From contig JAUYHB010000013.1 of NCBI GenBank assembly GCA_030690305.1, forward strand, positions 5,221-69,220: a stretch of 64,000 bases of DNA. The letters are read 5' to 3'. Position numbers: made by a program. Positions 42,001 through 51,000 of the stretch are shown here, piece by piece. Origin of the DNA: a bacterium (GTDB taxonomy: Bacteria > Patescibacteriota > Minisyncoccia > Phycocordibacterales > JAGLPS01). The number at the start of each line of letters is the position of its first letter. Positions within the stretch are counted from its first letter, which is position 1.

Positions 42001-45000
42001 ATCCTTCACTTTTTTAAAAAAAATCCGCACACCACTTTTGAATGTCTGTACAGATTTGGTAAAATCATCTTCAAAAATATTATCCCCCAAAATAACAGCA
42101 ATGTTGTTTTTGTCCGCAAAATCTTCCGCGTATGAAAGCGCGTCGGCTATGCCTGCATTGTTTTTATCCTGCACGGCGTAGGAAAGTTTGACTCCATATT
42201 CTTTTCCCGAGCCTAAGAAATTTATAAAGTGTCCCGCATGTTCGCGCCCGCAGACAAGAAGGATTTCAAGAATTCCCGCTTTCCGCAGTGTTTCAATAGG
42301 ATACATGATCATCGGTTTGTCATACACCGGCAACAAGTGCTTGTTTGTGACGAGAGTCAGTGGAAGAAGACGCGTACCAAGACCCCCCGCTAATATGATT
42401 CCTTTCATATAAATTTATTTTTTCTTATGGACGTTGTGAGCGCGCCACAAATCTATATGGGGGTTAAAAACTCCTGTTCTTTTTCTAACGTGATCAATCC
42501 ATTTTGGATTATTGATATACCACTCCAGGGTTTCTTTAAAGGCTTTTTCAAAAGAATATTTTTGCTTCCATCCAAGTTCTTTCATAATCTTTGTCGGGTC
42601 AACGGAATATCGACGATCATGGCCCGGCCGGTCTCCCACATATTCTATCCATGATTCGTCGCGTTTAAAATGTTTCAAGATTCGTCGGGCAATGTCGGTG
42701 TTGTCGAGTTCGTTGTCCGCACCGATATGATACACTCCACCGGGTTTACCCTTAAGAAGACACAGCTCAAGGGCACTGCAGTGATCAAGAACGTAAACCC
42801 AGTCTCTTACGTGTTTTCCATCACCATAGAGGGGCAATTTCTTGCCTTCCAACATGCGCAACACGAAAAAAGGAATGAGTTTTTCGGGATATTGGTAGGG
42901 ACCGTAGTTGTTCGAACAGTGGGTAACAACAACAGGAACTTTCCACGTGGAAAAATAAGCACGACACAGAAGATCTCCTCCCGCCTTTGTTGCCGCATAG
43001 GGCACGTTGGGAGCAAAAAGTGTGTATTCATGGAAACGTTTTTTGGAGTCAAGAGGCAAACTGCCATGAACTTCATCTGTTGAAACCTGGACATATTTTA
43101 CAACTGACGGGTGGGCCTTCACCGCTTCGGCAATATTAAAAACTCCTTCAATATTTGTCTTAATGAATTCAAGAGATGCACCGTGGATACTTCGGTCAAC
43201 GTGGGTTTCAGCGGCAAAGTTTATAACGTAATCGGGCTTATATTTTTTAAATACCCGATCAACCGTTTTCTTATTGACAATATCACCTTTTACGAAGCGG
43301 TAACGAAGTTTGGGATTCTCGGCTACATCCTTATTGTTGTCGCGATTTCCCGAATAGGTTAATTTATCAAGATTTATGATCCTGGTTTTAGGGTGTCTCG
43401 AAAAGATGTAGCGTATAAAATTAGAGCCTATAAAACCGGCTCCGCCACATACGAGAAGTGTCTTATTGTTGAATGTGAGTAATTTTGCCATATTTTCTTT
43501 CTAAACCTCTCCTTGTTTGCAAAAAAGATGCTTTTGCGCGAAAGTAGGTAACGCTTATTCTTACATAAAATGGCTAAAGGTCAAGGTTTTTGGGTGTTAA
43601 GAAGTTTTTATGTCTATTTTCTTTCTATGTTTTCCCAAAACCCAGCCGAGCCAGAAAGAAAGGATGAACCAGAAGATTTTGAGACCCCACTTTGCAAGCT
43701 GGTGCCACTTAGCGGTAAGTTGTGACTTTCCTATCCGCTCACTGAAAGAAATCGGAATCTCTATGAATTTTATCTTTTTGCTTACAACAAGAAGCAGGAG
43801 CTCTGTCGCGAAAAGGGCGTTGGTTGTACGCCAATAAGGGGCAAGAGAGAGTAATACTTCCTTCTCAAAGAGTTTGCATGTGCAGCCTATTTCAGTAAGA
43901 GAGTTAGTACCAAAAAAGACTTCGATTACTTTTGCCTCAAAGACATTGGCGAGCTTACGTATTAGACCCATTGAGGCTCCGTCCAGAATTGCGCTTCGAT
44001 TTGTGCGTGTCCCCATAACTACAGGGAAATCGTGTGAATATACGAGGAATTTTTCAAGGTCCGCCGCAGAATATGTTCCGTCAGGCTCTGATAAAAATAT
44101 ATAATCTCCAGTTGCCTCTTTAATACCTCGTTGGTAACCGTGCCCATATCCTTGTTTATTTTCATAGACAAGGCGTGCTTTTGTTTTCTTCACTTCTTCA
44201 TCTGTACCCGGCTCCGCATTGTTATTTACCACTACCACTTCATCAACAAAACCTGTAGCAAAATAATCATCAATCATTCTGCGGATTGACCCCTTTTCCC
44301 TATATGTAGAGAAAACAACTGAAACTTTTTTGCCTTGCCACATATGTTTATGTATCTAAGTTAACTCATTGTTAGAGCCGCATACCCCCATACCATAACA
44401 CGGTCGACTTTACAGAAGAAGGTTGGAATCACGAGCTAACCCGCTTCCGCATAAAACGATTTTTTAGCCAAAAAGTCAATATTTTAAAAATAATTTTAAT
44501 GCCGTGCCTGTATTTTATCTTTTTTCCTTCTCCCGTACTGCGCGGTATATACGATACCGGGATTTCAAGAATGCGATATCCTTCTTCAAGCAACCGGACT
44601 AAAAAAAGCATTTCGGATTCAAACCCACCCGCGTCGAAATAGCCGAAGGTTGATTTTGGAAATAACTTATACCCCATCAGGGTGTCCGTAAGAGTGGTGC
44701 TGTATAGAAAATTAATGAGCTTTGTGATGAACACGGAGCCGAAACGAGGTAAAAATTGACTCTTATGGTCCCGTGCGCCACGAAGTTCTCGGGAACCCAT
44801 AACGGCGATCTTTGTGTTTTGGGAAACATTTTTCAACGCGGAAAGCAATAAAGGTATCTCTTCGGGTTTGCACTCAAGGTCGGCATCCTGAATAATGGCA
44901 TAATCCCCGGTTGACACGTCAATTCCCGTCTTAACCGCGTTTCCTTTTCCGCCATTTTTTGAGAGATTTATTATTTTTATGCGTGAAGAAAAACTTTCCA

Positions 45001-48000: not shown

Positions 48001-51000
48001 AAGGGCGATTTTTTCGGACGGAATGAGTTTGAGGGAAAGCATTCTTCCCAAAACGGGAATGCAAGAACCCATGATGATTTGTGCAATTACAGCAAACACG
48101 AAGTTACCGAACAAAAACAGAGATGATGAGAGAAAGAGTGGGTACAAAGGCACATGAATGGGACTTGGCCTGCCAGGAAACAGGGAAAAACCGATTCCAT
48201 TGGTAATGTTTTTGGCAACCTCGAAGTACCAGTCGGAACCGTGTATCGTACCTTCAAAATCCCCTCCATAAGCAGACAAGTTAATAAAAAACAAAACGAC
48301 TCTCGCAGACAAAGCGAGTAGAAAAATAAAAAGTGGGATTTTATACTTTTTGAGGAAATACATCAAAGAGAGGAGCTTTATTCTTTTTCGTTATATGGAA
48401 TCGGCTGAACCTCTTCCCTGCTAAAAATAAATATTTTGTTGAACAAAAAAGAGACAACTGCTGTGATTCCAATGGTAAGAATCTGCGCAACGATATACCA
48501 GATATGCACTATGTCTACAAAAAAATACATAAAAGCCACGTTAAGCGCAAGCATCCCCCCTGCCAAAAATACATATTGGATCATCTGAAAGTGTACTCTA
48601 TGGAGAGAGTGGTCTTTGAATGTCCAAAACTTCTGAAACCCAAAGGAGACAAAAGCGGAAAATATAAAAGCCCATACAACGCCCACAAGATAGGAGATGC
48701 CGAACACCTCAACAAATAGGGCGAGCATACCAACCTGAGAACCGGCCGCAATACACCCGGAAACGCCGTATTTGAAGACAACACGAAAATCCCTAAATTG
48801 GTCAATCAAGAATTTCACTATTCGCCTATTGTAGCACAGAGAAACCCCTTATACGGCCATCTTCTTCCCGTAGTGTTTTTCCACCATATCAAGCCCTTTT
48901 TCCTCTTCTTTGGTGTTTGACCACTCTGTTTTAAAAATATATCCCCGTTCTCCTTCCAGACAATATTTGCTCATACGGTAAAAAGGCGACAACGATTTTA
49001 CTCTGGGAAGAAGATTGTTCTCCATTATGAGATCTCGAAGCGGTTTATCATTTTGGTTCCAATCGGTCAACTCTTTCATATCAAGTGTCGTAGTAAATTG
49101 CCCCTCGCGAGTAAGTGTCGTTCGCGATAAATCGAATGACCCTCCGAGCTTGTCCATCATTTCACGCGTGAAAAATTCAAATGAGCCGCGAAGTCCGAAC
49201 GGCTTTGGAAGTCCGAGCCATTGTCGTAATCTCCTCTGGGCATTCCCGGTTGAATTCGTCAGGATAAGCCAATCTTCCTGAGGCAGGAGGTCCATAAACA
49301 TCTGGTCAGTCAGGATAAAATTATCGTCATGTGTTATAAGCAATTTGTCATATTGCTTATAATCGTTTTTCTCGAGCCATTGGTTTGTATTACCGAAATC
49401 GCCCATAGTATTTGGTTCAAGCGAATATTTCCATCCTAAAGCTTCAATTTCTGCCACCGTCGCGACTTTGCGGTACAAAAGACGGTCATAGAGACTGCGG
49501 CGGTCATATCCCAATTGAGGTAATACATCTTTTTTTTCCTCTATAGCGTAGGAAGGATCTCTGTGCGAAACAACGAACATGTCAACTTGCCATCCGGCCG
49601 GCACTTTCTGTTGCGCGATTTGCTCAAAAAACCCTATCGGGAAATGCCATCCGCCCGCTATAACCGCTAGTTTTTTCATAGTAAAATTTTAAAAATTAAC
49701 AAAATAACCCCTATAGTTCTTAGATTCGTTTAAGATATATCCCTCGGCAGTTGGGAAAATAGATCTCTGTATCAGTATACAAGCCTTTCCAAAAACTTCT
49801 AAATGTATACCGACTCCTCAAAAAACCAACAAAATTGAGCTTTTCGCCTCGAAAACGGTGCTTTAGGTTTCGTATTTTTTCTTGCGCGAAGGCAAGGAAG
49901 GTAAGCATATTCATAAGCCCTAAAAATACCCTCTTTACTCCAGCCTTATGCATTGCACGAAATATTTGTCTCCATTGTTTGTCCGAAAACTCACGCTCGT
50001 TGCGATAAATAAACACAATGCTATTTTTGTCCGCACCGATGTTCACCCAACTTATGTCATTGAGAGCATCAAAAAAATTCACCTTATCGCACTCAAGAAA
50101 GACGCTTCGTAGCCGTTCCACGCCTTCTTGTGTGTATTCAGATGCCACAATTTTAAGAGACGGTATTCTTTTTTTGAGAAAATATTCAAACACGCCCCCT
50201 CCGGAACCAACTGAGTAGAAAGTCCTTATCCCCTCTTTTTCAATGAGAGTAGCAAGCGCCTCAACGCGTTCCGGGAGCTTGTCGTCCTGTCCGTCTTTCC
50301 GCAATGAAAGATCCTTAAGCCACGTTTCCCTATCTTTCGGTATTCGATATCGCGGATGTTTGTCCCGAAGTATTTGCCATCGTCTTACAGCGTCTTTTTC
50401 TCCATGTATATTCTCTAAATAAGGATCAGCAACTCCAAAAGAAACATAATGTTTGACCGTAACAGGGAACGGTAAGCTGTTTATATATTTGAGAATCTTA
50501 ATCATGACTTTCGTCAATCATCAAGAATTATTCAGAGAGTTAAATGTATCAATCACATAAGCAATTCGGCGGACATCATTGACTGAAACATCATGATGAA
50601 GCGGCAAAACAAGATATTCGTTTTCCAACCTGTCCATATTGGGGAAAGATTTCTTCCCACCGAAAATCGTGTACTTGTCATTTCTATAGTGATAAACACC
50701 GCTTTCAATTCCATTCTCGGCAAGATATTTTTTTAATTCGTCTCTCTTTGTCGTAAACACTGTCGCAAACCAGATATGGGCGTCGATGCCATGTTTTCTA
50801 TACTCTTCTATCAGCCCTTTACGGTGAGTAATGAGAGAATCAATAACTTTCAAATTCCCCAAAGCAATCGCGGCGTTCACGTCATTCATATGATATTTAT
50901 ATCCCGCCTCTACAAGGTCAGCATCTCCTTGTTTTTGTTTTAAATCACGGTCATACCCGAACCATCGCAGTCGGCGCGCTTTCTTGTCGAGTTCGACATC

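Follow-up and report, generated by a model that had tools for sequence, protein, structure and literature searches.

The described glycosylation systems closest to the one reported here have three or more components. In GtrA-GtrB-GtrC of Shigella phages and in CsbB-GtcA-YfhO and GtlA-GtcA-GtlB of Bacillus and Listeria, the common set is a polyprenyl-phosphate GT-A glycosyltransferase, a small GtrA-family protein and a transferase of the GT-C fold, and the logic of these systems is that a sugar is loaded on a lipid phosphate inside the cell and transferred outside it (PMC8035078; PMC11127046). Multi-component systems include some with a cytoplasmic GT-A enzyme and a separate small membrane protein (PMC8035078). 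Here we analyzed a 64,000-nt stretch of DNA from a bacterium of the Patescibacteria (contig JAUYHB010000013.1 of assembly GCA_030690305.1, positions 5,221 to 69,220; hereafter the window), in which a minus-strand operon encodes a GT2 glycosyltransferase (GT2b), a GtrA protein and a GT-C protein, together with a GT4 glycosyltransferase and an FkbM methyltransferase. We propose, with moderate confidence, that this operon encodes a membrane glycosylation line that uses a polyprenyl-monophosphate-linked sugar. It differs from the three-component systems in that the GT2 has no transmembrane (TM) helices, the GT-C is a protein of about 456 residues from a separate family, its conserved, fused members include a GT4 and methyltransferases, GtrA is fused in relatives to GT4s, a methyltransferase and GT-C, and the host belongs to the Patescibacteria. 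Our literature searches found no paper combining Patescibacteria and GtrA, and the 2024 survey of three-component systems (PMC11127046) mentions neither such fusions nor Patescibacteria.

Four other systems invite comparison. Taken together, GT2b and GtrA resemble, in split form, the dolichyl-phosphate-mannose (Dol-P-Man) synthase of Pyrococcus furiosus (PfDPMS, PDB 5mlz), which is one protein, whereas here two genes are separated by three others, the GtrA match is weak and GtrA is also fused to other enzymes in relatives. Streptococcus pyogenes (GacI-GacJ-GacK-GacL) and M. tuberculosis (PpgS-Rv3632) likewise combine a short cytoplasmic GT2 that makes a polyprenyl-phosphate sugar, a separate small membrane protein that stimulates it and a GT-C that adds the sugar outside the cell, but the likeness to GacI/GacJ is one of architecture only, because the partners GacJ and Rv3632 are DUF2304 proteins and not GtrA (bioRxiv 10.1101/180810); moreover, the flippase there is of Wzx type and neither a GT4 nor a methyltransferase takes part. 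In the Agl system of Haloferax volcanii, AglD, AglR and AglS add one mannose from Dol-P-Man, and AglJ, further glycosyltransferases, the methyltransferase AglP and AglB build and transfer an oligosaccharide on dolichyl phosphate (PMC3871713). Both short GT2s of the window have AglJ as their best NCBIfam match, far below the family cut-offs; the Agl system is archaeal, however, and the GT-C of the window lacks the C-terminal domain of an oligosaccharyltransferase (OST). Finally, the operon resembles the ArnB-ArnC-ArnD-ArnE/F-ArnT pathway for aminoarabinose on lipid A in having an aminotransferase, an ArnC-like GT2 and a GT-C in one operon, with a CE4 domain fused in relatives, but it has no ArnA, no ArnE/F and no sequence likeness to ArnT. 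The host group is not known to have lipid A.

Conservation and gene fusions of the module

We pulled 80 loci from representative genomes with a profile of the GT-C family, and the six-frame open reading frames (ORFs) of the fetched loci were searched with hidden Markov models built from the window proteins. Loci whose GT-C scored at least 200 bits were taken as orthologous (n = 45, the window's own copy left out) and those with a distant-paralogue GT-C formed the comparison set (n = 38). Partners were counted within 10 kb of the GT-C, and co-occurrence was compared by the Fisher test in the well-flanked loci, which had at least 5 kb on each flank (29 orthologous, 22 distant-paralogue). A GT2b-like gene was found in 35 of the 45 orthologous loci, abutting the GT-C on the same strand in 23 of them, and a GtrA gene in 31; both were present in 28. 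Among the well-flanked loci, a GT2b-like gene accompanied 25 of 29 orthologous GT-Cs and 0 of 22 distant paralogues (p = 1.1e-10), although divergent GT2s near the latter could slip below the 80-bit cut-off used for this partner. The corresponding figures were 22/29 versus 3/22 for GtrA (p = 1.3e-5) and 21/29 versus 0/22 for both partners together (p = 4.3e-8). Chance clustering of GT2, GtrA and GT-C was rejected on these co-occurrence statistics. In addition, GT4 genes numbered a median of 4 per orthologous locus and 1 per distant-paralogue locus, and a GT4 abutted the GT-C in 23/45 orthologous versus 1/38 control loci. An FkbM gene was present in 17 of the 45 orthologous loci.

Moreover, the components occur fused to one another in relatives, as read from stop-to-stop ORFs of the loci (L numbers) and from database proteins (P numbers). 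GT2b is joined to GT-C in P0026, P0057, P0084 and L017, GtrA to GT-C in L012 and P0228 (P0223 being GT-C+GtrA+GT-C), and GT4 to GT-C in P0335 and P0346 (P0342 being GT4+GT-C+GT4). GtrA is also fused to orthologues of three different GT4s of the window, namely those starting at 45878 (L009, L016 and L027, 33-34% identity over the full length), 53992 (L007 and L008 with 46-48% identity, L025 with 37%) and 55965 (L045, 32% identity over 365 residues). Methyltransferases are fused to GtrA (L002, L086), to GT-C (P0229, P0354) and, as a DUF268-like domain, to GT2b (14 loci), all of them different from FkbM, and a CE4 deacetylase is fused to GT-C in P0236 and P0365. All fusion partners are cytoplasmic-face enzymes, and every order of fusion fits GtrA and GT-C termini lying inside the cell. 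The GT2 domains fused to GT-C are 35-38% identical to GT2b and 22-24% to the second short GT2 of the operon (GT2a).

The original prediction had described a three-component GtrA, GtrB-like GT2 and GT-C module at 44429-48818, with FkbM and GT4 embedded between its parts. The three parts are indeed encoded together, co-conserved and fused; the operon is larger, however, and that interval cuts it. Nor are the GT4 and the methyltransferase insertions: because they are fused to GtrA, GT-C or GT2b in relatives, both are integral to the module. The matches of the GT4 at 45878 in the PDB (MshA, PimA, PimB) are confined to the donor-binding domain and tell nothing of its acceptor.

The GT-C protein

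The AlphaFold2 (AF2) model of the GT-C has a predicted local distance difference test score (pLDDT) of 93.1 and a predicted template-modelling score (pTM) of 0.92. In a Foldseek search of the PDB, every one of the top 29 matches of this model was a GT-C enzyme, the first 20 having probability 1.0; they comprised PglB, STT3, AglB, ArnT, Pmt (Pmt4, Pmt1-Pmt2), DPY19, ALG9/ALG3, GPI mannosyltransferase I and Emb. The OSTs PglB, STT3 and AglB were the best of these, with PglB the top fold match for the TM core, and the ArnT matches had query TM-scores of 0.36-0.38.

Conservation was assessed in a 48-sequence alignment of the family. D45 and Y47 are at least 90% conserved, within the motif G-x-D-G/W-Y-Y/F-D/E-x-A/S-K/R-N; E144, W229, R232 and R425 are invariant, and the TFFTHDG motif at residues 318-324 is nearly so. 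With about 10 TM helices taken from the model, lysine and arginine make up 26% of the inside loops and 5% of the outside loops. Loop 33-89, which includes D45, is predicted to lie outside the cell, and both termini inside, because of the positive-inside rule and the N-terminal GT2 and GtrA fusions. A conserved acidic residue in the first outward loop had been expected of this protein, and D45 fits that expectation. By their positions, E144 and R232 would also lie at outer helix ends. D45, E144 and R232, plus TFFTHDG, are candidate active-site residues of the outer face; the candidate role of D45 is assigned by topology and conservation, the family profile having no PDB sequence match at E<=1 through which to align it to a known catalytic aspartate.

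We conclude that the GT-C represents a separate family, outside GT39/PMT, GT83/ArnT and the OSTs. Membership of GT39/PMT was rejected, as the first loop has D45-W46 instead of D-E, the window protein has neither MIR nor PF02366, and a search with the family profile yields no PMT chain at E<=1. GT83/ArnT was rejected because there is no sequence match to ArnT at E<=1 and the C-terminal periplasmic domain is absent, the protein ending 13 residues past its last TM helix. The OSTs were rejected for want of a C-terminal soluble domain and of WWDxG in the 456 residues. Thus, of the label ArnT/PMT-like given in the original prediction, the GT-C fold (Foldseek) and the PF13231 match stand, and the specific kinship does not.

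The family is large, with 2526 cluster representatives found by its profile at E<=1e-30, and the nearest relatives retrieved were almost all Patescibacteria. NCBI names the protein 'glycosyltransferase family 39', and some relatives carry PF02366 matches. Some loci with an orthologous or related GT-C (L033, L048, L049) come from metagenome-assembled genomes (MAGs) labelled 'uncultured Gammaproteobacteria', and many others are labelled 'uncultured Candidatus Saccharibacteria'. For L033, the Gammaproteobacteria label is apparently an error of binning or labelling, because a typical GT2b-methyltransferase fusion is adjacent there.

The GtrA and GT2 proteins

Residues 16-132 of GtrA cover model positions 1-117 of 117 in PF04138, with 67.5 bits against a Pfam gathering score of 26.1 bits (the same score applies to PF13231). 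The protein has four hydrophobic segments and the repeated motifs FQKFWTF and FNKIFIF, a 2+2 internal repeat that was also seen as second BLAST segments. It is therefore a GtrA protein, as had been predicted, and not a member of another 4-TM family. A weak alignment (E = 0.11) links GtrA to residues 257-368 of PfDPMS (5mlz), its TM domain, which has the GtrA/DPMS fold, and the Pfam name of the GtrA family is taken from the domain seen in the 5mlz TM region. Because GtrA is fused in different genomes to GT-C, a methyltransferase and three different GT4s, a role in scaffolding or carrier binding is suggested; it looks like a docking hub for several enzymes, instead of or besides flipping. We propose it as the membrane partner or hub of the TM-less GT2 and of the GT4s, and possibly as a helper in translocation of the lipid-linked sugar.

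The seven best solved matches of GT2b are all polyprenyl-phosphate glycosyltransferases (ArnC, PfDPMS, GtrB), among them ArnC 9hwj (1.8e-16, residues 3-225), PfDPMS 5mlz (7.8e-16) and GtrB 5ekp, and the best two span almost the whole protein. Residues 90-92 of GT2b read DAD, and its C-terminal helix is basic and amphipathic. No segment exceeds the hydropathy threshold for a TM helix, whereas GtrB and ArnC have 2 such helices and PfDPMS has 4. Its relatives (120 among the matches listed) are about 225-257 residues long, apart from a few shorter partial entries, and likewise carry no TM helix and no extra domain. GT2b stays far below all NCBIfam equivalog cut-offs (AglJ 78.1 vs 325, ArnC 64 vs 529, PpgS 37.8 vs 370; PgfS also failed). 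The designation DPM1/GtrB-like, given to this GT2 by the original prediction, thus agrees with its solved matches and does not extend to the C-terminal TM helices or to any of these equivalog families.

GT2a, 27% identical to GT2b, has EPD at 86-88 in place of DAD. AglJ and Dol-P-hexose transferase are its best NCBIfam matches, both far under cut-off, and PfDPMS is its sole match in the PDB (8.6e-4). Since a GT2a-like gene occurs in 7 of the 45 orthologous loci, we regard GT2a as a clade-specific accessory, possibly a second lipid-phosphate sugar synthase.

Proposed mechanism and alternative explanations

We propose the following course of events. GT2b, as a TM-less GT-A enzyme of ArnC/DPMS/GtrB type, would act at the cytoplasmic face, moving a sugar from its nucleotide onto polyprenyl phosphate while docked on the 4-TM GtrA, in the manner of a split Dol-P-Man synthase, with GtrA in the role of the GtrA-like TM domain of the Pyrococcus enzyme; GtrA would probably also aid membrane crossing of the lipid-linked sugar. 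Methylation of the sugar would take place on the carrier or shortly before it is loaded, through FkbM in the window and through the fused methyltransferases elsewhere. The GT-C, with its roughly 10 TM helices, would take the flipped donor and glycosylate an extracytoplasmic acceptor via D45, E144 and R232. The likeliest acceptor would be a surface glycan assembled by the GT4s of the operon, and these GT4s would sit in the same membrane complex, tethered via GtrA or GT-C. What the analysis shows directly are the identities of the domains, the fold, topology and conserved residues of the GT-C, the co-conservation of the genes and their fusions. The nature of carrier lipid, donor sugar and acceptor, the flipping and the transfer of one sugar at a time are inferred. 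The original prediction of a 'monosaccharide donor' and a 'post-assembly decoration' likewise consisted of assumptions.

Several points weigh against this scheme. It is built from sequence comparison and structure models rather than from biochemistry. No priming transferase and no exporter for the GT4-made acceptor glycan were found in the minus-strand operon of the window, and a census of membrane ORFs within 10 kb of the module in the 45 relatives (35 other membrane ORFs) listed 1 Wzx, 2 ABC-2 and 3 Wzy_C proteins and no phosphoglycosyltransferase (PGT). It is also hard to see what a GT4 fused to GtrA or GT-C would do in a pathway that handles monosaccharides alone. The Pfam score of the GT-C is barely over the threshold (28.9 vs 26.1 bits), its fold matches reach query-normalised TM-scores of at most 0.49 (best 0.45-0.49) at 10-17% identity, and the family profile finds no solved chain among PDB sequences at E<=1. 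Furthermore, the distant-paralogue controls come from other phyla than the orthologous set.

An oligosaccharide built on the lipid monophosphate is a possible alternative because the loci are mostly without priming and export genes. We entertain it tentatively, in an archaeal style: GT2b would initiate as AglJ does, the GtrA-tethered GT4s and the methyltransferases would build an oligosaccharide on polyprenyl monophosphate, and the GT-C would move the flipped oligosaccharide en bloc to protein or wall, with no need of a PGT, Wzx, Wzy or ABC exporter. The Haloferax pathway of AglJ/G/I/E with AglP and AglB on dolichol phosphate is a precedent (PMC3871713). No priming PGT was found among the annotated ORFs of the window, its 47-kb island included, six annotated relatives have no PGT, Wzx, ABC or Wzy genes within 8-10 kb, and the scarcity of PGT, Wzx and ABC-2 in the census above points the same way. 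So do the GT4s around the module, given their median number per locus, the fusion of three GT4 orthogroups to GtrA and of GT4s to GT-C, as well as AglJ as best NCBIfam match of both GT2s and the OSTs as best fold matches of the GT-C. However, the AglJ score of GT2b is far under the equivalog cut-off (78 vs 325 bits), the GT-C lacks the OST C-terminal domain and WWDxG, and its fold scores do not split OSTs from ArnT, PMT and DPY19. A priming enzyme and exporter could also be encoded elsewhere in the genome, and the window itself carries an MsbA/PglK-like ABC exporter and a Wzy_C-TPR protein about 30 kb away. We know of no bacterial precedent for oligosaccharide assembly on a lipid monophosphate, which counts against this alternative as well.

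Protein O-glycosylation of the PMT kind appears improbable to us. Here the GT-C would move a lipid-phosphate sugar directly to Ser/Thr of secreted or surface proteins, for example pilins or S-layer proteins, as in actinobacterial Ppm1/Pmt, in keeping with the PMT_2 Pfam match, the NCBI name GT39 of the protein, PF02366 in some relatives, and Pmt4 and Pmt1-Pmt2 among the fold matches; the missing MIR, the failure of the family profile to find a PMT and a first loop with D-W rather than D-E speak against it, and the GT4 and methyltransferase partners would be left unexplained, since a sugar outside the cell is out of reach of GT4s that would have to extend it from the cytoplasm. Still more improbable, to the point that we give it little credence, is an Arn-like pathway in which the DegT aminotransferase makes a 4-amino sugar nucleotide, GT2b loads it on the lipid phosphate and the GT-C attaches it, as a cationic sugar, to an acceptor of lipid or teichoic-acid type, altering surface charge. 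DegT heads the block and has ArnB-type as its best NCBIfam match, ArnC is the best solved match of GT2b, and the GT-C+CE4 fusions of relatives involve the family of ArnD, the deformylase of undecaprenyl-phosphate-linked formamido-arabinose (Und-P-Ara4FN). Yet there is no ArnA-like formyltransferase/decarboxylase and no ArnE/F, the GT-C has no sequence likeness to ArnT, the module is without CE4, DegT occurs in just 17 of 84 loci (distant-paralogue controls included), and methyltransferase and GT4 partners are foreign to Arn.

Gene organization of the operon

The five minus-strand ORFs from GtrA to GT2b that had been predicted, with their domains, were borne out by the ORF listing and Pfam (Table 1). 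They form part of a longer minus-strand string, which runs from four GT4s and two epimerase/dehydratases (53992-59403) through DegT, the 265-aa and 276-aa ORFs, GtrA, GT-C, GT4, FkbM, GT2b and GT2a to the genes for sugar-nucleotide supply (RmlB, RmlA and the RmlD + C-methyltransferase fusion, 39629-43491) and then a carbamoyltransferase. Public gene calls (Patescibacteria MAG GCA_034375565.1, JAXMJZ010000013.1) match the window genes. The GT-C stop and GT4 start overlap by 4 bp, as do FkbM and the GT2b start; spacing between module genes is small or overlapping, and no strong minus-strand terminator was found between them. Since the database protein has 455 aa, the likely start codon of the GT-C is the ATG at position 48363. 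GC content is flat over the region (0.40-0.42), and a foreign origin of the DNA was rejected on this flat base composition. No tRNA and no Rfam families were found in the window.

The block from the 276-aa ORF to DegT (48849-51588) and GT2a are syntenic in close relatives, and we conclude that GT2a and the upstream block reaching 51588 belong to the module. DegT opens the conserved block and may provide an amino sugar; its best NCBIfam matches, ArnB-type (184.5 bits) and PseC (183.8 bits), are both under cut-off. In L002 the DegT orthologue (4200-6377, 725 aa) carries an intein with a LAGLIDADG homing-endonuclease domain. Both the 265-aa and the 276-aa ORFs are kept between DegT and GT-C in close relatives (L002, L005, L006, L086). 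The 276-aa ORF, kept directly upstream of GT-C in these four loci, matches nothing in Pfam, NCBIfam or the PDB even at E<=10 and may represent an undescribed family. The 265-aa ORF, syntenic in L002 and L086, has a sub-threshold Methyltransf_25 match (E = 0.067) and weak PDB methyltransferase matches. Upstream of DegT lies a divergent intergenic region, which holds a perfect sigma-70 consensus on the plus strand, upstream of an HD-domain gene; a strong terminator-like hairpin follows that gene.

Table 1. Positions of the module, its neighbours and further features in the window
Feature	Position	Strand	Length (aa)	Matches and remarks
GtrA	48378-48818	-	146	PF04138
GT-C	46996-48366	-	456	PF13231 (PMT_2)
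GT4	45878-46999	-	373	PF00534 116.5 bits
FkbM S-adenosylmethionine (SAM) methyltransferase	45151-45876	-	241	PF05050 76.8 bits, TIGR01444 84 bits
GT2b	44429-45154	-	241	PF00535 100.9 bits
GT2a	43597-44343	-	248	PF00535 51.4 bits; second short GT2
Orphan ORF	48849-49679	-	276	directly upstream of GtrA/GT-C
ORF	49720-50517	-	265	possibly divergent SAM methyltransferase; VGSGGG motif
DegT/ArnB/PseC-type sugar aminotransferase	50521-51588	-		PF01041 248 bits
Divergent intergenic region	51589-51708
Sigma-70 consensus	51633-51660	+		TTGACA, 16 nt, TG-TATAAT
HD-domain gene	51709-52392
Terminator-like hairpin	52408-52438
Upstream GT4	53992-55062	-		PF00534
Upstream GT4	55965-57086	-		PF00534 112.8 bits
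RmlB	42415-43491	-		TIGR01181 434 bits, above cut-off
RmlA	41692-42408	-		RmlA domain
RmlD + C-methyltransferase fusion	39629-41677	-	682	RmlD domain, Methyltransf_13, Methyltransf_14
Membrane gene	33736-34644	+	302	unannotated
Membrane gene	34641-36008	+	455	unannotated
MsbA/PglK-like ABC exporter	16611-18431
Wzy_C + TPR protein	11985-14363		792
Phage_holin_4_2 family protein	1123-1509	-		outside the island
DsbB-like protein	5324-5929	-		outside the island
DedA/VTT-domain protein	6308-6943	-		outside the island

Other genes in the window

From about 12 kb on, the window is also given to glycan biosynthesis, with the Wzy_C-TPR protein, GDP-mannose dehydratases, the MsbA/PglK-like ABC exporter, GT11s and further GT2s, GT4s and methyltransferases. 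At least two further glycan gene sets lie at 11985-32673. The first, on the plus strand, contains a GDP-mannose dehydratase (GMD), a GDP-fucose-synthase-like reductase, the exporter, TylF and CmcI methyltransferases, a GT2, DegT, a GT11, an asparagine synthase and a GT4. In the second, a perosamine-like pair of GMD and DegT (25982-28334) has as neighbours an acetyltransferase, a DUF268 methyltransferase, two GT2s and a GT11. On the minus strand, at 37160-41677, three genes come after the RmlD + C-methyltransferase fusion: one for an SxtJ-like small membrane protein, a DUF5989 gene of 49 aa that is called in the public record, and one for a NodU-type carbamoyltransferase. They suggest that the glycan contains a deoxysugar that is C-methylated and carbamoylated. 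Downstream of the island, at 59400-63532 (minus strand), lie a protein with PKD and lamin-tail domains, a VirD4/TraG/HerA-like ATPase of 577 aa and a putative glycosyl hydrolase with DUF4015. Also outside the island, the window encodes a Phage_holin_4_2 family protein, a DsbB-like protein and a DedA/VTT-domain protein, the DedA family being implicated in recycling undecaprenyl phosphate.

In at least 10 relatives, a single ORF of 736-797 aa that lies close to the module, on the strand opposite to it, corresponds to the two overlapping unannotated membrane genes at 33736-36008 taken together. The 302-aa protein has invariant NMDD and GNDH motifs in a predicted outer loop. Its AF2 model has a pLDDT of 74, the only Foldseek matches with a TM-score >0.4 were Pmt4 and PglB, neither of them significant, and hhalign of this protein against the GT-C family was negative. 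The pair may be a second, split GT-C.

Conclusions

Lipid-phosphate-sugar systems as such are known; what sets this one apart from those described is a TM-less GT2, a separate family of small GT-Cs, conserved GT4 and methyltransferase members and many GtrA fusions. The GT-C family is large and uncharacterised, with about 2,500 cluster representatives, and belongs, as far as its nearest retrieved relatives go, almost entirely to the Patescibacteria, a group with envelopes that have hardly been studied. The fusion network is relevant to the long-standing question of what GtrA does and argues for a scaffold or carrier-binding role. If the archaeal-style alternative were true, lipid-monophosphate oligosaccharide assembly would exist in bacteria as it does in haloarchaea, with GtrA being a docking hub rather than a dedicated flippase. 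It is conceivable, though on balance doubtful, that Patescibacteria would thus build a heavily methylated surface oligosaccharide on polyprenyl monophosphate, as a bacterial counterpart of the haloarchaeal dolichyl-phosphate pathway.

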